DNA of 50,652 nt, from positions 1 through 50,652 of the forward strand of contig JACXWA010000120.1 of NCBI GenBank assembly GCA_014764485.1, read 5' to 3'. This document shows, piece by piece, positions 15,365-45,941 of this stretch. Under the pieces are notes generated by a model. That model was not told where the DNA came from, did not search any database, and saw only the letters and a list, made by a program, of their open reading frames with translations. The position numbers were made by a program, and so were the translations under genes. The number at the start of each line of letters is the position of its first letter. The stretch's first letter is position 1. Source of the DNA: Candidatus Sulfomarinibacter kjeldsenii (lineage in GTDB: Bacteria > Acidobacteriota > Thermoanaerobaculia > Thermoanaerobaculales > Sulfomarinibacteraceae).

Positions 15365-15916
15365 TTATTGCTGGTTGAGCTCCTCGTCGAGCTCCTGATA
15401 GCGCTCCTGCTGCGACTGCTGGAGATTGTCGAGCCGATCGCGGACAGCGTCGGTGGCGAGGCCCGGACCGGGGCCGCCCGATGCAGCACCGCCAAACTGG
15501 ATCGCGTCCGAAGCGACATCGAGGTATCGGCGGGCCCGCATCAGGTGGGCGGTAGAGGGCCTTGTTGCCTGTGCCCGAAGCTCTCCGGCCGCTTTCCGGA
15601 TGGCCACCGCGGCTCGCAGCTCAGAGCTTGGTGACGGCGCCGCGTCCGCCCAGGCAGCGGCGGTGGCGGCAAAGGTCTTGAGATCTTCGATGTGATCGGG
15701 AAGGGTGTCCGGTGTGGCTAGGAGGCCTTCCATCGCGCCGATCATCTGCAGTGCGAGGTCGCGGTCAAGAGCCCTGCCGGTCACGCCCACTTCGCGGAGA
15801 TCTGTGGCGACCGCAGCAACAGCGTCGAGGCTCGAGGTCGCGTTACGACCCGTGAGATACATCATGTACCCGACTGCGATCAGGATGGTGAGGAACAGGG
15901 CCCCTGAGATTCGCAA
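15365..15916 (-). CDS. Hypothetical membrane-anchored helical protein
   Basis: Start re-called at TTG 15916 after GGAGG, with TATACT -10 upstream; N-terminal TM then Ala-rich helices and Gln/Glu-rich tail. Confidence 0.6.
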   Translation of the reverse strand: MRISGALFLTILIAVGYMMYLTGRNATSSLDAVAAVATDLREVGVTGRALDRDLALQMIGAMEGLLATPDTLPDHIEDLKTFAATAAAWADAAPSPSSELRAAVAIRKAAGELRAQATRPSTAHLMRARRYLDVASDAIQFGGAASGGPGPGLATDAVRDRLDNLQQSQQERYQELDEELNQQ

Positions 15917-16027
15917 CCAAAAACCTCCACTCAGAGTATAGATGACGGCGGATCGGCAGTGTCCCCAGCAGTGGACATCATTTCGTTGGTTGACCACCGA
16001 CTGTCGCAGTGAATCACGGGTCAAGCG

Positions 16028-16043
16028 TGGCACGATCCTTGCG
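16028..16043 (+). promoter_or_regulatory. Sigma-54 (-24/-12) promoter
   Basis: TGGCACG-ATCC-TTGCG matches TGGCACG-N4-TTGCW (last base differs); followed by GGAGG 16056-16060 and ATG 16066. Confidence 0.75.
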
Positions 16044-16065
16044 AGTTTGTTGGGCGGAGGCCGAA

Positions 16066-16989
16066 ATGCGCGAGAGAAAGACTGAATTAGGCGCGATTGG
16101 GCTGGTGGTTCTGATGATGGCTGTGGCCCCGTTGCCGATCGAGGCGCAGCTCGCTGCGGACTGGATGGTTCCGGCGGCGGCTCACAATCGCGGATCGCAG
16201 GACAGCTTCTGGAAAACGGACCTCTCGCTGCATAATCCGCATGAGTTTGACCTCCCGGTCGTGATTCAGGCACTTCCTAGCGACACGGTCAATCTCGAGG
16301 TCCCGACCCTGACATTCACTATCTATCCGTGGGAGACGATCAACTTGTGGGACGTGCTTGGTCCGGATGTCTTTGACGTGGATGGCACAGCGGCCATCAT
16401 CGCGTATGCCGATCCGGCGCTGCGGTGTGATCCGATCGAGGATTGCCATTTTCTGGTGACATCGCGCACCTATACCCCCGAGAAGGGCGGCGATGGTGAG
16501 TATGGTCTGACGGTGCCCGGCGCAGCGATATCGAGCGCCACTGATTGGTCTACCTTTGGTTATGCGGCTGGCGTGCTCAACGATGGTGACTACTTCAGGT
16601 GCAATGCCGGTGTCGCGTCCTGGACACCCGACTGGACCAGGGTGCGCCTCGATATCCAGGATTCCGACGGTCAGATCGTGAGCAGCGAGGTTTTCGACCT
16701 GCCGCCGTACGGCCATGTTCAGCGCCGCCTGGCGACATCCGGGTATGGGGGCTCTCTCGTTTTCTACCTCGAGTCAGGGCCCGATGACGCCTCGGTCTTT
16801 CCCTATGCAACGGTGATCAACCAGCGGACCGGAGATTCGAGCTACCTCTTCGCCTCATCTTCGGCGGTCGGTGTTTCGGTTGCGAAAAATCTCGGATCCA
16901 TCGGTGGCCGTCCCGGGGGTCCGTCGGCCTCGACGCGAGTTGTCACACCGGTGCGCAGAGGTCGGAAACCGGCCCACCGTCTGAAATAA
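16066..16989 (+). CDS. Secreted beta-rich hypothetical protein
   Basis: Signal peptide (..PIEA-Q); motifs VPAAAH..G...WKTDLSLHNP, SRTYT, FRCNAG, YATVINQRTGD. Confidence 0.75.
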   Translation: MRERKTELGAIGLVVLMMAVAPLPIEAQLAADWMVPAAAHNRGSQDSFWKTDLSLHNPHEFDLPVVIQALPSDTVNLEVPTLTFTIYPWETINLWDVLGPDVFDVDGTAAIIAYADPALRCDPIEDCHFLVTSRTYTPEKGGDGEYGLTVPGAAISSATDWSTFGYAAGVLNDGDYFRCNAGVASWTPDWTRVRLDIQDSDGQIVSSEVFDLPPYGHVQRRLATSGYGGSLVFYLESGPDDASVFPYATVINQRTGDSSYLFASSSAVGVSVAKNLGSIGGRPGGPSASTRVVTPVRRGRKPAHRLK

Positions 16990-17054
16990 TCGCAGCTGGA
17001 CCTCCCGCGATGTAGAATTCATAGTAGGGGCGTCTATCACTCGTCGGGGGGCGA

Positions 17055-19256
17055 ATGGTCCAGTTCGACAACCAGCACCGCCAGATCAAGATCAAGATCG
17101 TCTATTACGGCCCCGCCGTGGGCGGCAAGACGACCTGTCTTCAGCACCTGCACCGGGTCACAGATCCCCAAAATCGGACCAAGCTCTACTCCTTGAATAC
17201 TGCAACCGATCGCACCCTGTTCTTTGATCTCCTGTCGTTGAACCTCGGAAGGATCCGAGGTTTTCGCCTGGCCCTTCAGCTCTACACGGTTCCGGGTCAA
17301 GTCCAGTACGACGCGACCCGCCGCACGGTGCTTGCAGGTGCTGACGGGGTGGTCTTTGTTGCCGATTCCCAGGTCGCACAACGCGAAGCCAATCTCGAAT
17401 CTCTCGAGAATCTGTGGGTCAACATGGCCGCCAACGGTCTCGATCAGAAGACTGTGCCGGTCGTCCTGCAATACAACAAAAGGGATCTCGACCCGATCCT
17501 GACGGTCGAGGAGATGGAGGCGGCCCTCAACGGCGATGGCCGGCCGGCCTTCCCGACCGTTGCGATTTCCGGTGAGGGAGTGTTCGAGGCTTTTGCGGCA
17601 ATCGGCGAGCACACACTGGCTTCGGTGGCCGACAAGCTCGGGGTTGGCACCAGCCCGCAGGCGGTTGAACGTCTCCAAGAGCAGATGCACAAGGCCGTAC
17701 AGCCCTTCATGGACGAGGATGGCGAGGCGCCGCCCACCAACGAGGATACTGTGGTCACGGTCACTGGGCCTGAAATCGAGGCCGGGCAGGTCCTGAGCGA
17801 AGACCTGCTGATCGGTGAGGCGGTCCGGGCAAACCTGGCTATAACTGACGTCACGACCCGCCTCGATATTGTCAGCCGGCAGCTCAAGCGCAAGGTGCGG
17901 GTGATGGACAGCATCTCCCTGTTCGGTCATGCGGTGAGTAATCAACGCGATCCCGCCAAGGTATTACGTCTGCTCATCACTGAAGCGATTCGCCTGCTCC
18001 AGCTGCAAGGGGCCTCAGTGATCATCATTCCCGGTGGTGGACGTGTTCGAGAAGCGGTGGTCCACGGATTTAAACAGGATCCACTGCTATACGCCGCAGA
18101 CTCAACCGGAGGGTCGGTCGCGACCGCGCTGCTCAACGAACGCAAGCCTCGGCTCTTCGTGCGAGAGGCTGAAGAAGAAAACGACGAAGCCGCTGTGGCC
18201 GCGGTCGATGGTGCGGGATTTACGTCTGCGCTTGCGGTACCCATGATGACCCAGGAGAAAGTGGTCGGATTGCTGACTGCGTACGGCGACAACGAGCGAG
18301 CCGACCTCGACGAAGACGACTTGCAGCTTGCCACAGTTCTCGCTTCCACCGCAGCCATGGGATACGCCAACGCTATAGCCTGGCGGCAGATGGAAGACTT
18401 CAACAAGGGGTTGGAAGCCAAGGTCGAGGAGCGGGCGGGTGAGCTCAAAAGAAGTCTCGTCGAGTCCCGCCGCCTCGCCACCGACCTCGAGGAAAAGAAA
18501 AACCTCCTCGAGACCGCCTATCGTGATCTCGAGGCGCTCGATGAGGTCAAAAACGAACTGATCAATCGACTGTCGCTCGATCTTCGGACGCCGGTCACCT
18601 CACTCTTCACTGCCGCCAAGATCGTTCGCCGCGAAAAGGAGGTGTCTCCGGAAAAGGCCGAGCGGCTTTTGAACATCATCTACGATGAGGGTAAAAAGCT
18701 CATGGAGATTGTCCAAAATGTATTCCAGGCATCGGTGATTGCCGCTGGCGCGCGGGATCTCGAGCGAAGATCCGTGCCACCACAGGATCTTTTCCGCAAC
18801 GCGATCTCACCCCTCCGTGATCTCGCCGCGGACCACGATGTGCGCATACAGGTCCTCATTCCGAGCGGTCTGGAGACGATTTCTTGTGAGCCGGAGAGCG
18901 CTGAAGCAGCGTTGCGGGCGGTGATCAAGAACGGCATTGAGTTCAGTAGTGGTGGAGAGGTGAAGCTCGAGGTGCGGCGGGCCACGTACGACGGGGACCC
19001 ATGGTTGCAGCTGCGGGTGAGCGATTCGGGATCTGGAATTTCGGAAGAAGATCTTGCGCACGTTTTCGAGGCCTTCTGGCAAGGTGACGATTCGAATGCG
19101 GGGAAACGCCATGGAATCGGGCTCGGTCTTACAATTGCCAAAAGGGTTGTGGAGAATCATGGCGGCACCATCGTCGTCGAAAGGGGAGCGAGTGGGGGCA
19201 CCGAGGTTGTGATGTCCCTGCCACAGGAAGTGGTGCAGGATACGGCGCCGGCCTGA
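17055..19256 (+). CDS. MglA-type small GTPase - GAF - histidine-kinase-like (His-less) fusion protein
   Basis: KIVYYGPAVGGKTT, DRTLFFD, LYTVPGQ, GADGVVFVADSQ, QYNKRDL; GAF (SALAVPM..VVGLL); H-box SLDLRTP; HATPase KNGIEF, DSGSGI, VFEAF, GIGLGL. Confidence 0.9.
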   Translation: MVQFDNQHRQIKIKIVYYGPAVGGKTTCLQHLHRVTDPQNRTKLYSLNTATDRTLFFDLLSLNLGRIRGFRLALQLYTVPGQVQYDATRRTVLAGADGVVFVADSQVAQREANLESLENLWVNMAANGLDQKTVPVVLQYNKRDLDPILTVEEMEAALNGDGRPAFPTVAISGEGVFEAFAAIGEHTLASVADKLGVGTSPQAVERLQEQMHKAVQPFMDEDGEAPPTNEDTVVTVTGPEIEAGQVLSEDLLIGEAVRANLAITDVTTRLDIVSRQLKRKVRVMDSISLFGHAVSNQRDPAKVLRLLITEAIRLLQLQGASVIIIPGGGRVREAVVHGFKQDPLLYAADSTGGSVATALLNERKPRLFVREAEEENDEAAVAAVDGAGFTSALAVPMMTQEKVVGLLTAYGDNERADLDEDDLQLATVLASTAAMGYANAIAWRQMEDFNKGLEAKVEERAGELKRSLVESRRLATDLEEKKNLLETAYRDLEALDEVKNELINRLSLDLRTPVTSLFTAAKIVRREKEVSPEKAERLLNIIYDEGKKLMEIVQNVFQASVIAAGARDLERRSVPPQDLFRNAISPLRDLAADHDVRIQVLIPSGLETISCEPESAEAALRAVIKNGIEFSSGGEVKLEVRRATYDGDPWLQLRVSDSGSGISEEDLAHVFEAFWQGDDSNAGKRHGIGLGLTIAKRVVENHGGTIVVERGASGGTEVVMSLPQEVVQDTAPA

Positions 19257-19317
19257 TCTCAACCTCGATTTCTCAACAGCTTTCCGGCCTCGCAACGAAG
19301 ACTTGTGATATTGCTCG

Positions 19318-20694
19318 CTAAGACGAAAGGGCTTCCTCGTCAAACGTGTCCGCGACTTCACGAGCGGCGTCGGCGGCCAGAGCAAGGGCCGTCGGTGAAG
19401 CAATCTCGAGCATCGTCTCGGCTCCTCCAGGAATCGTCGACGGCCAGGTTGCCGCGGTCGACAGACACTCCCTGCCGAGGTGGAGGCAGACGCCAAGTGG
19501 TGTCGGCGAGCGTGGGTCCAACACCCTGCGGATCTCGGACGGAAAGTCGGCGAGGTGTGCGAGTCTCGAACCGACCCGCCGCGACAGATGCTCGAGCAAG
19601 GTCTTTCGCAGGCGCTGGTGCGGGACTGGAAGGGAAGTGAGGGCCCAGAGCACGAGGTCCGTTGGCACGGTCACGAGGTGAACTGCCAATGACGCGGTTT
19701 CAGGGGCCACATCGAGGTGTGGCGCAGCGGCCGCAGCCGTCTGTGACCAGGCGGCTACCACCTGCTGAATGAGTTCGTCCAGCTTTGCTGCTTTGGGACG
19801 TTTCAGAAAACCACTGCCGATCATTTCTTCCCACAGGTTGAGATCGGTTGCAATCGTCTCGAGCTCGGCGAGAGATAACGGCCCCGGATGGGTGTGGTTG
19901 CGAACCGTACAGGCGAGCACCATCTGGTTCCACGCAGCGTGGGGCCGTCCCGGCAGATAAAACGGCAGCTCGTTTTCGGAAGCCGCGAGCAAACCTTCGA
20001 TCTGCCCAGCCGGCAGAGGAACCAGGCCGGGGCTCGAGGACAGCCACTGTGAGAGCGTAGTGACGATGTCGCGCACCAAGTCGTGGAGACGGCTCAACTG
20101 GTTGCCATCGATTGCATCCTCTTCCGCTACCCCATCTCGAATCATCTGCCAGAAGAGGTCTTCGAACGCCTCGCCAGTAAAAGCGAGTTCATACGAACGT
20201 CGCTTCGCTTCGCCCGGCACATCCTCATCGGACCGACGCGCGGCCTCCATCAGAAGATGACTCGGCTCGACATTGAGGCTGAGTCCGAGAATGTCGAGGA
20301 CCGGGTGGTTGGGAATGAACTCGAAGCTGACTTCGGGTGATATCAAGATCCGGCTGGTAATGGCTTCGGCAAGATCGGTGAGGCTCGCCTGGAGGTCCTC
20401 TGGTGAGACTCGGCCCTCGCCAATGAGAAGGTCCGTGAAGAGGGCACGGCGGACCATCGAAGTGGCGAGGATACGGCGAAGCTCGCCGAGCGGAATCAGA
20501 CTGCGCCGGGTGAGCCAGGTGGCGAGCCTCTCCTCGGGGATCGTCGAAGAGGCGTAGCAGACCCGACCGTCGATGAAATCGAGCCGGCGCTCACCGCGAG
20601 TGTCTTTCAGAACCAGGCGTCCACTGACGCCACCCATCTGAAACCACTGCAGGAGGTCTCCAAAATGGAGACGGTCGAGGTTTCCCTTGATCAT
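19318..20694 (-). CDS. DUF4388 (PATAN-like) domain protein with uncharacterised C-terminal region
   Basis: Start re-called at ATG 20694: MIKGNLDRLHFGDLLQW...SGRLVL...FIDGRVCYA...LLMEAARRSDE. Confidence 0.8.
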   Translation of the reverse strand: MIKGNLDRLHFGDLLQWFQMGGVSGRLVLKDTRGERRLDFIDGRVCYASSTIPEERLATWLTRRSLIPLGELRRILATSMVRRALFTDLLIGEGRVSPEDLQASLTDLAEAITSRILISPEVSFEFIPNHPVLDILGLSLNVEPSHLLMEAARRSDEDVPGEAKRRSYELAFTGEAFEDLFWQMIRDGVAEEDAIDGNQLSRLHDLVRDIVTTLSQWLSSSPGLVPLPAGQIEGLLAASENELPFYLPGRPHAAWNQMVLACTVRNHTHPGPLSLAELETIATDLNLWEEMIGSGFLKRPKAAKLDELIQQVVAAWSQTAAAAAPHLDVAPETASLAVHLVTVPTDLVLWALTSLPVPHQRLRKTLLEHLSRRVGSRLAHLADFPSEIRRVLDPRSPTPLGVCLHLGRECLSTAATWPSTIPGGAETMLEIASPTALALAADAAREVADTFDEEALSS

Positions 20695-20834
20695 CGCCCC
20701 AGTATACCGGCTTACGAGCCTAAGCCGAATATGAGACGCGACCGAGTTGCGAGCGCCCCGGCACGCACCTCGTGCTTGGACAGGCTTTGAGCAGTGGTAG
20801 GAGATATCGGGAGAGGTTGCGCTACCATCTGTGG

Positions 20835-21701
20835 ATGCGTCTCCTGCTCTTGAGTGCTCGTCCAGATCTTCGTACAAACACTCGGTTCGCCGAAGCGGCG
20901 AACGATCTTGGAATCGACCTCGGGTTGGTCGACGGGATCACCGCTTCGGCGTCACTCATCGATGGCAATCTGAAACCGTTGGGAGTCGAGATCGATCGCG
21001 AACTCCCCGACGCTGTCCTCGCGCGGGTCGGTAACTGGCGGCCCGAGAGCTTGCTCGCGGTCCTCGAGGCGTTTGTCGCATGCGGCGTGGCGACGCCCAA
21101 CCCTCCCGCCGCTATCAGAATGGGCCGCGATCATTGGGCAACCACGATGGCCCTGACTGTAGCCGGTCTGCCGGTGCCGCCAACCCTTGCCGGCGCCGAC
21201 CCGGAGGCATTGGCAGCAGAGACCGTTCGTAGCCTTGGACTACCGGCGGTTGTGAAACAGAGGCGGTCGCGGATGGGCGTCGGAGTCATTCGGTGCGCCA
21301 CCCGCGATCATCTCGAGGCGATCCTCGACTCATTGTGGCGGATCGGTGACGAAATCGTCGTCCAGCGATGGCTGGCCGGAGGCGAGCACAGTCTCCGTTT
21401 GATGGTGGTCGGAGGGTCGGTTGTCGCTGCGGCGCGTTTCAGCGCTGCCAAAGGCGAATGGCGGTCCAACTCTGCCCGAGGGGGATCTGCCGAGGCCCAT
21501 GACGCGTCACCTGACGAGAAGAGGCTTGCCGTTGCCGCAGCGGCGGCACTCGGTCTCGGCCACTGCGGTGTGGACCTGGTGGGCAGTGAGGCGGGGCCGG
21601 TGATCCTTGAGATCAACCCCACGCCGGGATTTCTGCGCCTCGAAGAGGCGACAGGTATTGATGTCGCGCGTGCTCTGGTTGAGCACGCAGTTGCCAGATA
21701 A
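20835..21701 (+). CDS. RimK/LysX-family ATP-grasp ligase
   Basis: AGLPVPPT, VVKQ..SRMGVGV, WRSNSARGG, GVDLV, ILEINPTPGF. Confidence 0.85.
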   Translation: MRLLLLSARPDLRTNTRFAEAANDLGIDLGLVDGITASASLIDGNLKPLGVEIDRELPDAVLARVGNWRPESLLAVLEAFVACGVATPNPPAAIRMGRDHWATTMALTVAGLPVPPTLAGADPEALAAETVRSLGLPAVVKQRRSRMGVGVIRCATRDHLEAILDSLWRIGDEIVVQRWLAGGEHSLRLMVVGGSVVAAARFSAAKGEWRSNSARGGSAEAHDASPDEKRLAVAAAAALGLGHCGVDLVGSEAGPVILEINPTPGFLRLEEATGIDVARALVEHAVAR

Positions 21702-21707
21702 CTCCGG

Positions 21708-22223
21708 CTACTGTGCCTCGGTTCCGGTGGCAACCGGTGCCGGTCGGCCGGCGAGTTCCCGATCGATCATCAGCAGGCCATGCGGACTGTCCTCGACCAT
21801 CTTCACCTGGTGGAAGAGCGTATCGGCGGTGGCTTCCTCCTCGACCTGCTCGTTCACATACCAGTGCAACATGACCGTCGTTGCGTGATCATTTTGGGCG
21901 GTAGCGAGGTCGACGATCTCGTTGATACGTTGACTGATGTGCCGCTCGTGATTGAGCACCGCCTCGATTGCCACCGACGGCGAGTCCCACTCCTTCTGCG
22001 GCCCGTCCAGCGCCATGAGTTCGACCGTGCCGCCACGTTCCGCGAGGTAGTCAAAGAGCTTCATCGCGTGACCAAACTCTTCCTGGGCCTGGATCCGCAT
22101 CCAGTGCGCAAAACCATCGAGGTGGTGGGCGGTGAAATATGCTGCGACAGAGAGATAGAGATAAAAAGAAAAGAACTCGGCGTGGATCTGCTCGTTCAAA
22201 GCCTTTTCGACCTTTGCGTTCAT
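21708..22223 (-). CDS. ftnA: Non-heme ferritin
   Basis: LNEQI.AEF.S..LYL, QAQEE..HA, HE, WYVNEQVEEE ferroxidase ligands; AAGGAG RBS. Confidence 0.93.
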   Translation of the reverse strand: MNAKVEKALNEQIHAEFFSFYLYLSVAAYFTAHHLDGFAHWMRIQAQEEFGHAMKLFDYLAERGGTVELMALDGPQKEWDSPSVAIEAVLNHERHISQRINEIVDLATAQNDHATTVMLHWYVNEQVEEEATADTLFHQVKMVEDSPHGLLMIDRELAGRPAPVATGTEAQ

Positions 22224-36697: not shown

Positions 36698-37930
36698 TCA
36701 GCGACAGCGTTCGGAGTAGTCCTTCTCGAGCGCTGGCAGTTGATCCAACAATTGCTGCGCACTGTCGTTATCACCGATTTTCTGGAGCTCGTCAACCTGA
36801 AGTCGGAGAGCGGCGATCGTCTTCTTGAAGTCCGCACATTCCTTGTCGGCTGCCTGATTTTGGGCAGCTTTGCTCTTTTTGTCTTCCATTTGGCGCACCA
36901 TCGATTGGTTGCCCGCCTCCTGATACCAGCTGATGGCGTTGTTGTAGTCTTTCTTCTTGTCGTAGATGAACGCGCCCTGGTTGTAGATCTGGTTTCGAAG
37001 TTTTCCAGAAGCGCCTATCTTCAGAGCCTGCTGGAGATCTGCGAGCGCAGGGTTGAGCTGGTTAATCTGTGTCTTGCACTGGGCGATGTAGTAGTAGACG
37101 AGGGCGTTGTTGGATTGCTGGGACCTGGCCTTGTCAAACGAGGCCTGTGCCTTCTGATACTGCTTGGCGCCAAGCCAGGCTTCACCCGCAAGAAGCTGGT
37201 GCTCAAAGGTCGGGGAGGCGTTGGCCAACCGGTCCGCGATCTGCCCGGCCTGGTTGTAATAGTTGCTTTTGCTCGAGTTTGAACTCGAACGCCGGGCGAC
37301 TGATATCGCCGCTTTCACCGCATTGCGGGCACTTGTGGCATCTTTGGCGTTGAGGTCGTATGCACTTTTATATGCCTCAAATGCCTTGGCTTCGTCACCC
37401 GAGGCGGTATATGCGGAGCCGAGGGCCTGTTGCAGACGGTAGTTCCTTGAGTCCGCTCGAGCTTGGGTCGTCAGGACACCGATGGCTTCGCCGGGCCGGT
37501 TTGTCTTGGTCGCTGCCTGAGCAAAGAGGAGAGCGTAGCTCGACCGATGTGAAGCGTCCATCGAACTCATGCTGAGAGGTTTCAACAACTCATAGGCATT
37601 CTGATACTGATCCGCCTGAAGAAGCGCCTGGCCAAGAGCGATCTTGTACGATGCCTGGCTGCCGTCGAGCTCCACCGACTTGCGGAGGCTGGCAATGGCG
37701 GGGCTCAACTGGCCAAGAGCACGTTGTGATACACCCAGCATGTAGTAGGCGCCCGCATAATCTGGGTTGGTCTTGGTGACCTCCTCGAACTCCTTGACGG
37801 CATCCGCCCAGTCCTTCTTCTTGTAGGCCTCGAGGCCCTTGTTCCACTCCGCGTGTGCCGGAAGCGCCGCCGCCAGCAACAACAGTGCTGCTGCTCCTGC
37901 GATCGTCGCACGGCTGACCCTCGATTTCAT
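36698..37930 (-). CDS. Secreted tetratricopeptide repeat protein
   Basis: Signal peptide ending AHA; multiple TPR units (e.g. AYYMLGV..ALGQ..AIASLRKSVELD). Confidence 0.85.
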   Translation of the reverse strand: MKSRVSRATIAGAAALLLLAAALPAHAEWNKGLEAYKKKDWADAVKEFEEVTKTNPDYAGAYYMLGVSQRALGQLSPAIASLRKSVELDGSQASYKIALGQALLQADQYQNAYELLKPLSMSSMDASHRSSYALLFAQAATKTNRPGEAIGVLTTQARADSRNYRLQQALGSAYTASGDEAKAFEAYKSAYDLNAKDATSARNAVKAAISVARRSSSNSSKSNYYNQAGQIADRLANASPTFEHQLLAGEAWLGAKQYQKAQASFDKARSQQSNNALVYYYIAQCKTQINQLNPALADLQQALKIGASGKLRNQIYNQGAFIYDKKKDYNNAISWYQEAGNQSMVRQMEDKKSKAAQNQAADKECADFKKTIAALRLQVDELQKIGDNDSAQQLLDQLPALEKDYSERCR

Positions 37931-37965
37931 TTTCTGTGCCTCCAGTTGTTTTAACGCAATCTGAC

Positions 37966-38802
37966 TTACATTTGTTGCACTTCACCAAGCAACGGTCTGA
38001 CCTGTTCATCGAACATCGCCGCCGTGTCAGAACCCTTGAGAAGCGAAATCGCCTTCGTATGTTGCTCTACCATCTCTCGCAGAGCATCGAAACCCTCACC
38101 GCGTTCAATCAGGGTCCGCGCTGAAGTGTACTGCTTCTCGATCGTCCGTTCACCCCCCGAACCAACAACGTCGAGTGCTACCGAACGAATTTTCTCTGCC
38201 AGGCCGAGCAATGTCACCGGGTTGGGCCCGGACTGCCACCGCTGAATGCCATCGCTGGCATCTCCTGGATTACCGAGAGCCACCAGCCCTGTGGTGATCA
38301 TTCCGAAGAGCAGCTTCGATACGTCGAATGGCGCCCATTTGAGCTCGTTGGCAATCTCCTCGATGGTCAGCGCACCATCGATACGAGTGACCAGTATCCA
38401 CTCTTGTGGACTGAGAGTCACCTGGTCCGTTCCCTGCTCGCGCGAAGCAAAGTAGGGCACGAGATCCAGAGATGGGATTTTCCGCGAAAGCACGCGCCAC
38501 TCGTCGAGGCGGCGGGCCGCCTCCATCATGAGGCTGGCGTTAGACATGTGGATGGTGACGTGTTCCGATTCCTCGCCAGGGTTGAATGAGAAGGTGCCCT
38601 GGGTCCAGATGGCCATCTCGTATACTGCGCTGTCACCGCGGAGTCGCCCGACGAGGGCGTCAACTATCTGGCCGTCACGGAGGTAGATCTTTCCCTCTGC
38701 TTCATCGCATTGGATTTCGAACGCACCCGTTTTGCCTGAGACACTCACGAGTTGAATGACGTCCGGCAGCGGAAGCTCGTTCAAAGATCCTTGCAGCGAC
38801 AT
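37966..38802 (-). CDS. DUF4388 (PATAN-like) domain protein with winged-helix-like segment
   Basis: MSLQGSLNELPLPDVIQL...KTG..I...IYLRDGQIVDA...LMMEAARRLDEW; LSPQEW..LVTRIDG..TIEEIA. Confidence 0.88.
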   Translation of the reverse strand: MSLQGSLNELPLPDVIQLVSVSGKTGAFEIQCDEAEGKIYLRDGQIVDALVGRLRGDSAVYEMAIWTQGTFSFNPGEESEHVTIHMSNASLMMEAARRLDEWRVLSRKIPSLDLVPYFASREQGTDQVTLSPQEWILVTRIDGALTIEEIANELKWAPFDVSKLLFGMITTGLVALGNPGDASDGIQRWQSGPNPVTLLGLAEKIRSVALDVVGSGGERTIEKQYTSARTLIERGEGFDALREMVEQHTKAISLLKGSDTAAMFDEQVRPLLGEVQQM

Positions 38803-38811
38803 GTTCGAGGG

Positions 38812-39534
38812 TTACTGCAGGTTGAACCGCACCGTCAGGATGTAGAGAACCTCTACCGGCTTTCCGTTAAGGGTCGACGGCTCGAACTTCCATTTGTTGA
38901 CAGCATCCACCGCGGTTTCGGTCAGTCCGAGCGGGAGCCCCCGCAGGACTTTGACGCTCTGAACACTCCCGGTCTTGCCGATCACGCATTCGAGCACCAC
39001 GACACCCTGGATGCGCGCTCTGCGAGCGGCCTCAGGATAGACAGGATTGGGCCCGCTGATCTTCTTTGGTTCGGTGATGTTCCCACCTACCACAAAACGA
39101 ATCGGACCCTCGGGCTCTGGCGGTGGCGGCGCGTCGGGCACTCCGAGAACCAGGTTGTCATCCGGAATGAAATCAACATCCTCATCGGGTTCCTGGTCCC
39201 GAATCGGCTCGGGTTCATCGGGCGTAGGATCTGGAATCGGGACCTTTTGAATCTTGGGTTTCGGGATCTGCTGCATCTCTCTCCGTGGCGGCTGTTTGAA
39301 CTTGACCTGCTTGACCACGTAGATCTTGCTCTTCTTCTCCTTGGCATCAGAGAGCCCGCCGGCAAAGGATGGCCAGTGCATGGCGAAGATGATGATGTGG
39401 AATATGACCGCGATACCCAGCGACCACCGCGCTACCTTTTTGTCCTGCCCCTCCTCGAGGGCCAGCAGCTCGGCTGTGGTCATCGACATCTTGTCGTCTT
39501 TTTTCTTTGGCGCGGCTTTTGGAGAATCGCTCAT
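38812..39534 (-). CDS. tonB: Energy transducer TonB
   Basis: TM with His (AVIFH), Pro-rich linker, TonB-C YPEAARRARIQGVV...AVDAVNKWKFEP. Confidence 0.9.
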   Translation of the reverse strand: MSDSPKAAPKKKDDKMSMTTAELLALEEGQDKKVARWSLGIAVIFHIIIFAMHWPSFAGGLSDAKEKKSKIYVVKQVKFKQPPRREMQQIPKPKIQKVPIPDPTPDEPEPIRDQEPDEDVDFIPDDNLVLGVPDAPPPPEPEGPIRFVVGGNITEPKKISGPNPVYPEAARRARIQGVVVLECVIGKTGSVQSVKVLRGLPLGLTETAVDAVNKWKFEPSTLNGKPVEVLYILTVRFNLQ

Positions 39535-39545
39535 GGCTTCCCCCT

Positions 39546-40043
39546 TTACTGGATCCCGAGCATCGACCACAGGTTCTCGATCTCACGCCGGGTCGGGATC
39601 GAGATCGTTTGAATATCCGTCAGCGGCTTTCCGTGGACGTCCATGTGCAGCGGCTGGCCGTCGGCGTCCGTCCACTCGATCCTGGCCGTGCGCAGAGTGT
39701 CGAAGGCCCGGATCATGTCGCCATAAGTCGCATCAGGATCGGTGCGCAGAATCACCGGCTTTTCGGGATTCTGTTTGAGCTTGTCGAGAACATAGGGAAG
39801 CAATCCTTCGAGCGGCGTGCCATTGCCATCGATCTCGATCGCACCGCCGCGCAGGACGTGGACGTCGATCGAATCTTCCTGTTTGATCTCAGGTGTGTCG
39901 GTGTCCTCTGGAAGGGCGAAGTCGAGACCTCGATCAGCCGAAAATGCCGACGTAATCATGAAGAAGATGATCAACAAAAAGGAAATGTCGGCCATCGACC
40001 CGGTGAAGATCTCGGATTGGACTTCTTTCTTTTTGATCCTCAT
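39546..40043 (-). CDS. exbD: ExbD/TolR family protein
   Basis: SMADISFLLIIFFM TM with conserved Asp; ILRTDPDATYG. Confidence 0.9.
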   Translation of the reverse strand: MRIKKKEVQSEIFTGSMADISFLLIIFFMITSAFSADRGLDFALPEDTDTPEIKQEDSIDVHVLRGGAIEIDGNGTPLEGLLPYVLDKLKQNPEKPVILRTDPDATYGDMIRAFDTLRTARIEWTDADGQPLHMDVHGKPLTDIQTISIPTRREIENLWSMLGIQ

Positions 40044-40055
40044 GGTCGCCCCCGC

Positions 40056-40505
40056 CTAATCTTTCACGGTCTTCTGTTCGGACAGCAAGTAGATGTTTTT
40101 GACCTTGGACTGTTTCAGAGCATCGAGCACCGCATCGACGTGCTCGTAGGGCACCTGTTCATCTGCCTTGATGATGAATTCTTTGTTCGGATCCCGCGCC
40201 ACCTCGGTGGAGGCGAATGTGACGACCTCCTCGGTGGTGCTGACCGGCAGTGACATCTCTTCACCTGTAGAAACCCGCACCGTCAACGGTGCAGTGATGT
40301 CGTCCGGCGGAGCGATCGAGATCACGGCTGCCTTTTCAGGAACCTTGCTCCGAATCCAAGTGTCCGGGAGATCCATCTTCGTTCTGTCCACCTCGACCTT
40401 GTAGGTGACGATAAAGAAGACCAATAACAAGAACACGATGTCCGCCATCGAGGCCGTGAAGATCTGTCCTGCAGGTTTGCGTTCTCTTCCGCGGATGAGT
40501 CCCAT
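40056..40505 (-). CDS. exbD: ExbD/TolR family protein
   Basis: SMADIVFLLLVFFIV; IKADEQVPY..V..VLD.L. Confidence 0.9.
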   Translation of the reverse strand: MGLIRGRERKPAGQIFTASMADIVFLLLVFFIVTYKVEVDRTKMDLPDTWIRSKVPEKAAVISIAPPDDITAPLTVRVSTGEEMSLPVSTTEEVVTFASTEVARDPNKEFIIKADEQVPYEHVDAVLDALKQSKVKNIYLLSEQKTVKD

Positions 40506-40519
40506 CTGCGGGCTCCCTT

Positions 40520-41176
40520 CTAGGCCTGGCCCTCGCCTCCCGAACCATATCGCTGGCTGTCCATCTCGGTGAAGGTCTCGACCAGCATGTTCGAGGCGGT
40601 CTCGATATCGCGCACAAAGCGGGTGATCTTGGTGGTGTACCAGTTGTAGACCAGCTGAGCGGGAATCGCGATGATGAGACCGGTGGCAGTTGTGATCAAC
40701 GCCTCCGAAATTCCGACAGCGACCGCCGCCGGGTTGGTGAGACCCTGCTCGGCAAGCGTCGCGAAGGACTTGATCATCCCGGCGACGGTGCCGAGGAAGC
40801 CAAGCATCGGTGCGACGTTGGCGGTCGTCGCCAACACACCGAGGCGCTTCTCGAGCCGATCAAGCTCATACAGCGCTGCGTTCTCAATGGTCTTCTCGAC
40901 GTCCTCACGGGCATGGCCGTAGCGCAGCAGGCCGGCCTTCATCACCGAGGCAACGGGGCCCTTGCTCTGCTCGCAGATTTTGATCGCTTCCTTGACATTC
41001 CGATTGACAAGCAATGCCTTTCGGATTTTTGTCAGGAAATCGCTGACGTTGATCTTCGCCTTTGAAAAGACGATAAATCGCTCGATAGCTACGGTCGCAG
41101 CCAGCACCGAGAAGAAAAGAAGCGGGTACATGAAGATCCCACCCTGGCGAAAATACTCTGCTACCTGTCCAGTCAC
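40520..41176 (-). CDS. exbB: MotA/TolQ/ExbB proton channel family protein
   Basis: GGIFMYPL, APMLGFLGTV.GMI..F, GISEALITTATGL.IAIP; GGAGGAGG RBS. Confidence 0.92.
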   Translation of the reverse strand: MTGQVAEYFRQGGIFMYPLLFFSVLAATVAIERFIVFSKAKINVSDFLTKIRKALLVNRNVKEAIKICEQSKGPVASVMKAGLLRYGHAREDVEKTIENAALYELDRLEKRLGVLATTANVAPMLGFLGTVAGMIKSFATLAEQGLTNPAAVAVGISEALITTATGLIIAIPAQLVYNWYTTKITRFVRDIETASNMLVETFTEMDSQRYGSGGEGQA

Positions 41177-43067: not shown

Positions 43068-45941
43068 ATGAACGCGAGCATTTTAGTTATCGAATACGAA
43101 CCGCGTTACGTGGAACACCTGCGCGAAGCGCTTGCAGGGCCTGATTTTCATCTCGAAATCGCCGGCAATCTAGATGACGCGGTGAATCTCTGCGCTTCCT
43201 TCGAACCCGCCGTCGTCATCATCAATTCCGTTCTCCCCAATCTCAATATTGAGGATGCCATCACGCAACTTCGTGCTCGCGCAGGTTTGCGTGCGACCCC
43301 GTTTCTCATCCTGATGTCTGGTTATCGTGGAGAGACACCAAAAGAGGACGCGGTCCAATACGGTGCGCAGGACATTCTCGAGCGTCCATTCGGAGCGGAT
43401 GCTCTTCGTGAGCGTGTCGAGGAACTGATTCGGATCACACCCGATCCGGCTGCCACCCAGGCCATCCCGCAGGAGATGCTCGAGACTCTTCGCCGCAGCG
43501 CAGGCCTGTCTGACAGAGAGGCTCCCGTGACCTCTGACGACTTATTCGGGGACATTCTTTCAGACATGGAGGGGGGCGAACAACAGCCGGTGCAGGCGCC
43601 ACCCGAGATCACGACACCGCCGGTGGCCGAAGAATCCACCGAGGACTCGTCGCTCAACGAGGCACTTGCCGATATTCTTGAACCCGAAAAAGGAACCAAG
43701 CTGCGCACGACCAAGTCGACCGACGAGGAAGTGGACAAGCTGCTTTCAGATACCTTGTCCGGGCTCGATATTGCTGCCCTCAGGAAAAAACCGGTCGAGG
43801 CGGAACCCGTGGCGCAATCTGCCACCCCGACCTCACCTCCACAGGAAACCGAGAAACCGGCGGCTCCGCCGACCCCATCTGAACCTCCGGAGTCGTTACC
43901 GCCGGTTGAGGAGCCGGTTCCCGAGGAGAAACCGACGCATGTGACACCGCTTCCGGCGAAGCCTCCGCGGAAGAAGCCCCCTGGGCGGAAACCGCCGGCA
44001 GAGTCTGCGCCGCCAGACGCGTCTGAGAGCCCCGCGCCATCGGGCTCCGAGTTTGGCCAGTACGTTATCGAGGAGCATATCGCCACCGGTGGCATGGCTG
44101 ACGTTTACAAGGCCCGAATGATGGGCATGGAAGGGTTCCAGAAGACAGTTGCCATCAAGCGCATTCTCGGCAACCTCACTGACAGCGACGAATTTGTCCG
44201 CATGTTCATCGATGAGGCCAAGCTCGCCGCTCAACTCAATCACAACAACATCATCCATATCTACGACCTCGGAAAGGTCGATCGATCGCACTACATCGCG
44301 ATGGAGTACATCGAAGGACACGATCTTCGCTCAATTCTCGAATTGTGTCGTCAACGTGATGTGAAAATGCCGATCGAAGTCGCCCTCTACGTCACCAATC
44401 TGCTGGCATCGGCTCTCGACTATGCGCACAAGAAGCACGATTTTGAAGATCGAGCACTCGGGCTGGTTCACCGGGACGTGTCGCCCCAGAACGTCCTCAT
44501 CTCGTTCGATGGCGACATCAAGCTCTGCGATTTCGGCATCGCAAAAGCGGCCTCCAAGGCGTCTCAGACACGCTCTGGCGCGCTGAAGGGCAAGCTCCAG
44601 TACATGTCACCGGAGCAGGCGTGGGGTAAGGATATCGACCACAGGTCGGATATCTTTTCACTCGGCCTGGTGCTCTTCGAAATGCTGACAAACGAAAAAG
44701 TCTTCTCCGGCACGTCCGAGCTGTCGGTGCTCGAGCAGGTGCGAGACCCGATCATCACCGCACCGTCGATGAAAAACGCAGACGTCGACTCCGAGGTTGA
44801 TCGAATCATATTCCTCGCGTTGAGTGCTGAGCGTGATGAACGGTATCAGTCAGCTGAAGATCTCCAACGTGATCTTGAAAAGGTCATGCGCAAAAAAGGA
44901 TGGTCTGTCGATCGTTCGAATCTGGTTGCTTTCCTCGAAAGCCTCGATTCAGGGCGCCAGGTTCAGCCGGTCGCCGACGACGCATCCGTGACGCCGGTAC
45001 AGTCGGCCCCACCATCGGAGCCGCCACCGCCAGTCCCTCCCATCGAGCCGCCTGTTGAAGCCACTCCGGTGCCTCCACCAGCGGTAGAGCCTGAAGTTTT
45101 GCTTGCAGAGAATGATGGCCTCGATGGAGTCCTCTCTGTGACGCCGCCGATTTCAAGGAGTGCGGAATCCGGGATCGATGATTCCGGTTTCGGGCTCAAG
45201 AACGCAGCTGCCGGCGGCAATAAAAAGCGGTTATGGGTGGCGTTCGGCGCTTTGGCAGTGGTGTTGGCTGCGGCTGGGGGCTGGTTCTTCTTCGGTCGCG
45301 GAGGGCTCGAATCATCTCCGAGTTCGAGGGCTGTTCCAATCACGATTCCGGCAACCGAAACTCCTACACCGGAACCAACCGTGGGTTTGATGTCTGATCA
45401 GGAGTTGATCGAGAGAGCTCGAGAGGTTGCGGCTGCGGAGATCACCAAGCAAGAGGAAGAACTCCGCAAGCGCCTCGAAGAAGAGTTCCCAACACCGACA
45501 CCGATACCACCGACGCCGACGCCAACCGAAACTTCAACGCCCCTTCCGACCGACACACCGACACCGATTCCACCGACGCCGACCTCACCACCGCCGACGG
45601 CCACTCCGATTCCGCCGACTCCGACACCGTCGGTTCGCGAGGGTGACATTGTTGTCCCGGGCCCAGGCGTCATTCCGCCGGTGATAATTTACCGGGAACC
45701 ACCGAGGTATCCACCGGCAGCTCAGAGAATGGGTGAGTCCGGAGTAGTGGAAGCCGAGGCCTTGGTCGGAATCAACGGTGTAGTGGAGCAGGTTCGAATA
45801 ACCAAAGTCGAAGGCCGAAGTCTGGGATTTGAAAAGGCGGCCGAAGAAGCGATCTTCAAGGGTCGCTACAAACCAGCTACCAAGGGTGGGATCAAAGTCC
45901 GGGTGTGGGTGACGATCCGGGTGCCCTTCCAACTCGAATAG
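43068..45941 (+). CDS. Pseudo-receiver - Ser/Thr protein kinase - TM - TonB C-terminal domain fusion
   Basis: REC-like N-terminus; Hanks kinase GGMADVY, VAIK, HRDVSPQN, DFGIAK, YMSPEQ; one TM; PT-rich linker; TonB-C PRYPPAAQRMG..GVV...YKPAT..G..V. Confidence 0.9.
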   Translation: MNASILVIEYEPRYVEHLREALAGPDFHLEIAGNLDDAVNLCASFEPAVVIINSVLPNLNIEDAITQLRARAGLRATPFLILMSGYRGETPKEDAVQYGAQDILERPFGADALRERVEELIRITPDPAATQAIPQEMLETLRRSAGLSDREAPVTSDDLFGDILSDMEGGEQQPVQAPPEITTPPVAEESTEDSSLNEALADILEPEKGTKLRTTKSTDEEVDKLLSDTLSGLDIAALRKKPVEAEPVAQSATPTSPPQETEKPAAPPTPSEPPESLPPVEEPVPEEKPTHVTPLPAKPPRKKPPGRKPPAESAPPDASESPAPSGSEFGQYVIEEHIATGGMADVYKARMMGMEGFQKTVAIKRILGNLTDSDEFVRMFIDEAKLAAQLNHNNIIHIYDLGKVDRSHYIAMEYIEGHDLRSILELCRQRDVKMPIEVALYVTNLLASALDYAHKKHDFEDRALGLVHRDVSPQNVLISFDGDIKLCDFGIAKAASKASQTRSGALKGKLQYMSPEQAWGKDIDHRSDIFSLGLVLFEMLTNEKVFSGTSELSVLEQVRDPIITAPSMKNADVDSEVDRIIFLALSAERDERYQSAEDLQRDLEKVMRKKGWSVDRSNLVAFLESLDSGRQVQPVADDASVTPVQSAPPSEPPPPVPPIEPPVEATPVPPPAVEPEVLLAENDGLDGVLSVTPPISRSAESGIDDSGFGLKNAAAGGNKKRLWVAFGALAVVLAAAGGWFFFGRGGLESSPSSRAVPITIPATETPTPEPTVGLMSDQELIERAREVAAAEITKQEEELRKRLEEEFPTPTPIPPTPTPTETSTPLPTDTPTPIPPTPTSPPPTATPIPPTPTPSVREGDIVVPGPGVIPPVIIYREPPRYPPAAQRMGESGVVEAEALVGINGVVEQVRITKVEGRSLGFEKAAEEAIFKGRYKPATKGGIKVRVWVTIRVPFQLE
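45490..45630 (+). repeat. Coding low-complexity Pro/Thr repeat (PTPTPIPPTPT...)
   Basis: Repeated CCGAC(A/G)/CCAAC units encoding the extracytoplasmic linker. Confidence 0.8.

Follow-up and report, generated by a model that had tools for sequence, protein, structure and literature searches.

An MglA-type GTPase fused to a histidine kinase transmitter that lacks its phospho-acceptor histidine in Candidatus Sulfomarinibacter kjeldsenii

Our analysis of a 50,652-nucleotide stretch of DNA from the marine-sediment acidobacterium Candidatus Sulfomarinibacter kjeldsenii (contig JACXWA010000120.1, positions 1 to 50,652; hereafter the window) concerns a gene whose 733-residue product joins an MglA-type GTPase domain, a GAF domain and a histidine kinase transmitter in a single polypeptide. 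The transmitter carries leucine at residue 508, the position of the phospho-acceptor histidine, and alignment of the protein with 119 close relatives found leucine at this position in 113 sequences, serine in six, glycine in one and histidine in none. The kinase half is not decaying, and purifying selection acts on every domain of the protein. With the acceptor gone, receiver genes gone from the neighbourhood and all domains constrained, we read the protein as a GTP-switched histidine pseudokinase that acts by partner binding and not by phosphotransfer, an interpretation that we hold with slightly better than even confidence.

Architecture, constraint and the missing histidine

The domain order proposed in the original prediction, which was made from the sequence without database searches, is borne out by Pfam domains and by matches to MglA structures (Table 1), and the choice of start codon is backed by conservation of the N terminus, with Met1 kept in at least 90% of 51 family members. 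When residues 1-212 were searched against PDB sequences, residues 7-190 matched residues 7-190 of Myxococcus xanthus MglA (5ymx_A, E 1.9e-60); Thermus thermophilus MglA (3t12_A) was matched at E 1.3e-46, and the best GTPase outside MglA was Rab-4B, at E 3.8e-6. Pfam itself gave the G domain a weak Arf/Ras-type match only (Arf, residues 10-160, E 4.2e-5). The four predicted MglA signatures all lie within residues 19-144, and the fused domain has both the intrinsic arginine finger (R53) and the catalytic glutamine in G3 (Q82). According to passages of PMC3441718, the intrinsic arginine finger is a mark of the MglA subfamily, and a Q82A substitution locks MglA in its GTP form. R53, Q82 and the NKxD motif are kept in all 41 rows of our motif table, bar one row with serine at position 53.

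The C-terminal 268 residues match solved kinases, among them 7z8n (E 1.1e-25), HK853 (E 2e-22), DivL (4q20, E 3.8e-15) and RetS (6dk8, E 8.3e-11). In the PDB sequence search the H-box segment SLDLRTP (residues 507-513) matches SHELRTP of HK853 position by position, and also aligns with SHEIRTP of 7z8n; this alignment and the codon itself agree with the original reading of a CTC leucine at the acceptor position. Because residue 508 is leucine, no autophosphorylation is predicted at the canonical site. The N (residues 623-631), G1 (656-662), F (670-676) and G2 (687-692) boxes are retained, as had been proposed, according to both the motif table and the strong HATPase_c match. An AlphaFold2 (AF2) model built from a 51-sequence alignment has a mean predicted local distance difference test score of 80.9 and places the G domain at residues 1-194, a helix at 201-219, a low-confidence segment at 220-248, a long helix at 249-295, GAF at 300-411, the H-box helix at 420-526, DHp helix 2 at 532-563 and the CA domain at 572-723. 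What had been described as a coiled coil corresponds in this model to the unbroken helix 420-526, which runs into DHp helix 1.

Could a sequencing error or a private mutation explain the leucine, could the fusion be an assembly chimera, or could the kinase half be a remnant in decay? CTC is one base away from CAC, and the genome is a metagenome-assembled genome (MAG) of 127 contigs that is 67% complete. The relatives listed by a word-indexed search number 120, with identities of 62-99% and lengths of 650-773 aa; the H-box alignment comprises 120 sequences, the query and 119 of these relatives, the 650-aa P0083 (box SLNLRTP) being left out. The original prediction had allowed that orthologues might all retain histidine, and its absence from all 120 sequences goes against this. 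Four named MAG loci, 68-92% identical and assigned to Candidatus Sulfomarinibacter, Sulfomarinibacteraceae and an uncultured Thermoanaerobaculia bacterium, carry CTC, CTC, CTC and GGC at codon 508, so that the leucine codon recurs in three independent loci. The region 16000-20900 is present at 85% or more of sampled words in 14 DNA runs from six studies of marine sediment or seawater. In run X2, from another study, one 7,835-nt contig spans the whole of 16000-20900 with 12 differences, and in run X12 a 3,507-nt contig covers 16000-18861; no difference falls at 18576-18578 among the 40 listed of the 68 differences found in contigs from other studies. An assembly chimera, also raised in the original prediction, is likewise contradicted by the X2 contig and by the recurrence of the same architecture across the phylum, described below. 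The H-box alignment, the MAG codons, the spanning contigs and the low ratios of nonsynonymous to synonymous substitution (dN/dS; 0.03-0.12 for the DHp and CA domains) together refute an artefact or remnant, to which we assign almost no probability.

Constraint on the individual domains was estimated by pairwise Nei-Gojobori comparison with three related loci (L031, L030 and L033, in that order). It is strong in the DHp domain (dN/dS 0.070, 0.042 and 0.028), the CA domain (0.075, 0.117 and 0.084) and the G domain (0.095, 0.118 and 0.101), and the linker at residues 196-290 is the least constrained part of the protein (0.24-0.34). Around the lost histidine, K499, R505, S507, P513, S516, L517 and A520 are invariant in the 120 sequences, and the acidic residue at +1 (Asp or Glu) is near-invariant together with R511, T512 and P513, whose entropies are 0.1, 0.2 and 0 bits. 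N626 and D657 are invariant in a 51-sequence family alignment that reaches down to 26% identity, and the rows of the motif table that lack the histidine keep R53, Q82, NK(R/Q)D, the N-box asparagine, DxGxG and GxGxGL.

Distribution of the fusion and repeated loss of the histidine

Among 201 sampled genomes of the phylum, 43 contain a match at E<=1e-60 and 34 contain a match that spans the whole protein, the spanning matches being distributed over families f1, f12, f18, f25, f26, f27, f44, f57, f60 and f66. An exhaustive search of 1.84 billion representatives returned 2,372 proteins at E<=1e-30; domain-wise phmmer searches found both G and CA domains in 44 of the best 150 of these. Source annotations are generic ('ATP-binding protein', 'GAF domain-containing protein', 'histidine kinase/SRP receptor subunit beta'), and matches in the ESM Atlas are to generic histidine kinase clusters only, the top cluster being most commonly Acidobacteriota.

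Most members of the family retain the histidine, in boxes such as SHELRTP and SHEMKTP. The nearest histidine-bearing representatives, at 39-57% identity, are P0121 (SHELKTP), P0125 and P0128 (SHELRTP) and P0126 (AHELNTP); at 50-53% identity the acceptor is replaced by Asp in P0123, by Glu in P0124 and by Asn in genome G143. We placed these proteins on an unrooted family tree of 56 rows, obtained from a quick IQ-TREE run with SH-like approximate likelihood ratio (SH-aLRT) support only and omitting 15 partial or differently built proteins and eight near-duplicates. The window's protein falls in an eight-row clade (SH-aLRT 98) that wholly lacks the histidine, nested in a 15-row clade (support 100) in which P0125, P0128, P0126 and P0121 are basal and histidine-bearing. 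Families f25 and f57 make up a clade of 12 rows (support 100, on a long stem) that is also entirely without the histidine and has degenerate boxes, such as RTDISKP in f25, from which the threonine has gone too; a further copy without the histidine, with Gly in its place, occurs in G173. The distribution of the histidine on the tree needs five changes, at least four of them by well-supported branches, and since histidine kinases have the histidine we interpret these changes, on an unrooted tree, as repeated losses. The fusion, as judged from these sequences, is ancestral, and older and wider than the window's clade.

A second tree, of 78 G domains including the first 45 representatives classed as 'G only', is divided by a split with support 99: 29 of the 30 fused G domains fall on one side, and canonical MglA and both long-tail MglA paralogues of the same genome on the other. 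P-loop position 21 is alanine in 43 of 56 proteins with GAF, DHp or CA domains and glycine in 23 of 25 proteins on the canonical side. Several fused-side proteins first classed as 'G only' proved to have other partners: P0172 (772 aa) is G-GAF-GAF-GGDEF, P0198 (794 aa) is G-PAS-HATPase-REC, P0168 is G-GAF-PAS-HATPase, and P0171, P0173 and P0192 are G-GAF. Because it is joined to GGDEF in P0172 and to PAS-HATPase-REC in P0198, the G domain is not bound to one output, and by its sequence relationships it looks like a modular N-terminal unit.

Gene neighbours and the remainder of the genome

The gene neighbours of the fusion change together with the loss of the histidine. We surveyed 23 loci with flanking sequence, 12 with the histidine and 11 without, by six-frame scans with locally built DUF4388 and receiver hidden Markov models (HMMs), whose seeds were few, so that divergent copies may have escaped them. 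Eight of the 12 histidine-bearing loci (L043, L044, L050, L051, L052, L053, L055 and L056) have a same-strand receiver gene immediately upstream, and none was detected within the flanks of the 11 loci that lack the histidine. In L043 (5681-10957, minus strand) and L044, from genomes G045 and G029, an apparent operon comprises two single-domain response regulators, the MglA-GAF-kinase and a second GAF-HisKA-HATPase kinase.

Genes for DUF4388 (PATAN) proteins also differ with histidine status. In the window's clade such a gene adjoins the kinase gene convergently in five of five loci, and in the f25 clade a TPR-DUF4388 gene follows directly downstream on the same strand in four of four loci by HMM and, among the matches listed, in eight of eight genomes by Pfam coordinates; none was found beside the kinase in the 12 histidine-bearing loci with the local model. 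The surveyed genomes carry 7-17 DUF4388 matches each, so that the probability of chance adjacency is small, though not nil. In the window, conservation of the DUF4388 protein begins at MIKGNLDRL in five orthologues, which places its start at 20694, and the mechanical open reading frame (ORF) extends to 20877. A gene for a RimK-type ATP-grasp protein (20772-21701, plus strand) overlaps this 5′ extension and thereby supports the shorter form; a ferritin gene (21708-22223, minus strand) comes next. No PDB sequence matched the DUF4388 protein at E<=1, and a complex prediction for the 733-aa protein (51-row alignment) with PATAN residues 1-170 (five-row alignment) scored 0.00, which speaks neither for nor against binding.

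The gene upstream of the fusion encodes a protein with no Pfam match and no PDB match at E<=1, and its position directly 5′ of the kinase gene is shared by L030-L033 and by the more distant genome G143, where the identity is 49%. It overlaps a 302-aa ORF on the opposite strand (15365-16273) that is likewise conserved by tblastn. A scan of 15900-20900 gave one promoter-like site (shuffle mean 1.0) and six terminator-like sites (shuffle mean 3.5), none of either kind usefully placed between genes. Seven short contigs (185-251 nt, depth 2-4.5) from metatranscriptome run X15 lie across the three genes; they are too sparse to demonstrate transcription, and carry-over of DNA may explain them.

Table 1. 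Coordinates of the fusion gene, its parts, adjacent genes and the long-tail MglA paralogues (window positions unless a locus is named).
Feature	Position	Strand	Basis or note
MglA-GAF-HisKA(His->Leu)-HATPase_c gene	17055..19256	+	ORF with ATG start, 733 aa; Pfam domains
MglA-type G domain, residues 1-195	17055..17639	+	PDB match (phmmer), motif positions
P-loop GPAVGGKT, residues 19-26 (Ala at 21)	17109-17132	+	motif table
R53 (in DRTLFFD, residues 52-58)	17211-17213	+	motif table
Q82 (in TVPGQ, residues 78-82)	17298-17300	+	motif table
NKRD, residues 141-144	17475-17486	+	motif table
Linker, residues 196-295	17640..17939	+	AF2 model
GAF domain, residues 298-435	17946..18359	+	Pfam GAF_2 E 2.9e-12, GAF E 5.3e-10
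Continuous signalling helix and DHp helix 1, residues 420-526	18312..18632	+	AF2 secondary structure
HisKA (DHp) domain, residues 499-560	18549..18734	+	Pfam HisKA E 1.8e-7
Codon 508, CTC = Leu, phospho-acceptor His position	18576..18578	+	alignment to solved kinases
HATPase_c (CA) domain, residues 616-725; N626, D657xGxG, G687xGxGL	18900..19229	+	Pfam E 1.1e-22
Upstream gene, hydrophobic N terminus, likely start 16066	16009..16989	+	ORF; 66 nt before kinase gene
DUF4388/PATAN protein, 458 aa, convergent neighbour	19318..20694	-	Pfam DUF4388 E 4e-18
471-aa MglA paralogue, 47% identity to fused G domain	L003 1498-2913 (contig C80)	+	
>695-aa MglA paralogue, 46% identity to fused G domain	L004 1-2085 (contig C19)	-	runs off contig

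The 1.78-Mb genome contains four MglA-type G domains: the fusion, a canonical MglA and two paralogues with long low-complexity tails rich in Pro, Glu and Ala. The original prediction noted the absence of an mglB/Roadblock gene from the window and suggested a search of the genome. Searches for Roadblock/Robl_LC7 gave no match on the window's contig (C112) at E<=0.1, and the sole match above the cut-off lies on contig C40, in a canonical operon where mglB (162 aa) precedes mglA (194 aa). The companion claim, that the window lacks a cognate response regulator, holds for the surroundings of the kinase gene, but the window does contain a receiver domain: there are 24 receiver-domain matches in the genome, and the only one on this contig (43080-43421) is 24 kb away. 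It belongs to a 957-aa protein (43068-45941, plus strand) of unusual composition, with a receiver at residues 5-118, a Ser/Thr kinase domain at 332-594 and TonB_C at 878-956. Elsewhere in the window a minus-strand run (36698-41176) encodes a TPR protein at 36698-37930, another DUF4388/PATAN protein at 37966-38802 (E 4.3e-26), a protein with TonB_C at 38812-39570 and, at 40520-41176, a MotA/ExbB channel protein; with PATAN next to a Ton/Exb-type motor, the arrangement recalls the loci of gliding motors.

Mechanism, alternatives and relation to known systems

We propose that the protein is a cytoplasmic signalling protein, probably dimeric, in which an N-terminal MglA-type GTPase would be connected, by way of a long helix, GAF and the signalling helix, with a HisKA/HATPase_c transmitter without its histidine. 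The N-terminal position of the G domain, the variety of its outputs and its helix-GAF-helix connection resemble the input modules of sensor kinases, and for this reason we read it as a GTP/GDP-dependent input that, together with GAF, would set the conformation of the transmitter according to nucleotide state. Output would then consist of nucleotide-dependent binding of a partner through the constrained surface of DHp and through CA, the ATP-binding domain, in the manner of the Caulobacter protein DivL, and histidine-bearing relatives would be G-protein-gated kinases acting on the response regulators encoded upstream of them. The original prediction of a switch operating without a His-Asp phosphorelay gains support from the retained ATP-binding boxes, the low dN/dS and the absence of receiver genes next to the fusion. 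We infer, and do not demonstrate, that GTP exerts control and ATP is bound, which way the signal runs, who the partners are (PATAN protein, response regulator) and any GTPase, ATPase or phosphatase activity.

Several observations weigh against this interpretation. The predicted template modelling score of the AF2 model (0.44) is too low for a reliable arrangement of domains or contacts between them, although the individual domains are good. Gly21 of MglA, whose replacement by valine blocks hydrolysis, is equivalent to Gly12 of Ras, and with alanine at this position the GTPase cycle of the fusion may differ from that of MglA or be slow. The retained Asp/Glu at +1 and Thr at +4 fit a phosphatase as well as they fit a scaffold, and the retention of CA in full would be compatible, too, with phosphorylation of the histidine of another kinase. 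PATAN adjacency in the window's clade is weak evidence, since 14 kb of gene order is conserved throughout that clade. Nor is the pairing obligate: in G143 the PATAN orthologue (42% identity) is on a separate contig, G165 (98% complete) has a PATAN orthologue at 48% identity and no MglA-kinase found with these queries, and the loci L042 and L057, which lack the histidine, have no DUF4388 gene within about 8 kb or to the nearer locus end.

Two other activities have to be considered. The protein could be a dedicated response-regulator phosphatase that docks an orphan receiver and dephosphorylates it at a rate set by the GTP state of the G domain. The motif [DE]xx[TN] next to the histidine is the phosphatase determinant in HisKA kinases and some EnvZ mutants altered at the histidine retain phosphatase activity; here the remainder of the H box (the acidic +1 residue, R511, T512 and P513) has been kept after the histidine was lost, and the genome has 24 receiver-domain matches. 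Against this, a receiver gene is adjacent in none of the 11 loci that lack the histidine, the second large clade of this type (f25) has lost the threonine as well, so that phosphatase activity cannot be the general fate of such proteins, and DivL, the best-studied HisKA protein without the histidine, is described in part of PMC4211667 as having no phosphatase activity. We therefore regard a dedicated phosphatase as unlikely, if far from negligible. It is also conceivable that the protein works as a heterodimer, with its CA domain phosphorylating the DHp histidine of another kinase or its own histidine-less DHp domain titrating a partner in the manner of RetS and GacS. All four ATP-binding boxes (N, G1, F and G2) are intact and under constraint, and an intact CA domain may serve trans-phosphorylation or ATP-dependent conformational control; RetS chains are among the solved relatives, and a second kinase gene lies directly downstream in the histidine-bearing relatives of G045 and G029. 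No kinase gene is adjacent in the loci that lack the histidine, however, and the nearest other kinases of the same genome are just 24-30% identical over the transmitter, which speaks against heterodimers formed through DHp, although a partner could be missing from a genome that is 67% complete. Heterodimerization of this kind strikes us as quite improbable, and the GTP-switched pseudokinase remains the reading that we prefer.

Comparison with known systems sharpens this picture. The 184-residue G-domain match, R53, Q82 and NKxD are shared with the Group 1 MglA proteins of M. xanthus and T. thermophilus. In contrast to MglA proper, the fused G domain is part of a 733-aa protein and not a stand-alone protein of about 195 aa (family range about 150-240 aa), its gene is not coupled to mglB, it has alanine and not glycine at P-loop position 21, and it lies on a branch separate from the canonical MglA of the same genome. 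Literature searches retrieved no paper describing a fusion of MglA to a histidine kinase. A survey of small GTPases from 2014 (Wuichet and Sogaard-Andersen) excluded proteins of more than 240 aa, which in the MglA subclade removed 39 of 488 sequences, according to a portion of PMC4316618, and the supplements of that paper may list these 39 long proteins.

DivL has tyrosine at the acceptor site and PAS sensor domains. The fusion resembles it in having a HisKA/HATPase_c transmitter that keeps its fold, has the histidine replaced and is under purifying selection, and differs in its leucine and its MglA-GAF input; it lacks the histidine that is the hallmark of HisKA kinases but has the HATPase_c boxes. 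DivL is presented in an excerpt of PMC4211667 as a histidine kinase that has been put to use in binding DivK~P and has neither kinase nor phosphatase activity. The actinobacterial conservons likewise couple an MglA-family GTPase with a histidine kinase-like ATPase, and sections of two reports state that the system has no response regulator (PMC4316618) and that its membrane kinase autophosphorylates (PMC13343842). Conservons consist of four separate proteins (the kinase CvnA, the MglB-like/Roadblock CvnB, CvnC and the GTPase CvnD), whereas the fusion is one polypeptide; the conservon GTPase belongs to Group 2 and has no arginine finger, whereas the fusion is of the arginine-finger type, cytoplasmic, without the histidine, and found in Acidobacteriota. 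Unlike a conservon operon, its contig has no Roadblock match at E<=0.1, and its neighbours encode a protein without Pfam match and the DUF4388 protein. PATAN genes near mglA/mglB were reported previously for Group 1 and Group 5 MglA (Makarova 2006, as cited in a passage of PMC4316618), and PATAN-REC regulators of Synechocystis bind the pilus motor according to part of a preprint (bioRxiv 10.1101/2021.06.11.447907). In contrast to the known PATAN-mglA pairs, PATAN genes here lie beside MglA-kinase fusions that lack the histidine, in two separate clades, and beside none of the 12 histidine-bearing loci.

MglA is the model polarity GTPase of bacteria and has been studied as a free-standing protein with MglB; in the fusion a G domain of this kind is joined covalently to a two-component transmitter. 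The occurrence of the fusion in many families of Acidobacteriota, in kinase-competent forms and forms without the histidine, offers a natural series in which to study the coupling of a GTP switch to a histidine kinase and the conversion of a kinase into a pseudokinase. It also shows that the link between small GTPases and histidine kinase-like ATPases is not confined to the conservons of actinobacteria. Of broader and greater interest is the possible use of an MglA-GAF cassette as input for several kinds of output domain. We speculate, tentatively and with rather more doubt than conviction, that an MglA-type G domain, usually with GAF, is a modular cis-acting input cassette: a distinct MglA subfamily marked by Ala21 and placed on kinases, hybrid kinases and a diguanylate cyclase, in which the kinase would have become a pseudokinase beside PATAN genes in several lineages and would feed a GTP switch into polarity or pilus control without phosphotransfer. 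If this is true, such proteins would represent G-protein-gated two-component and cyclic di-GMP signalling contained within single polypeptides.

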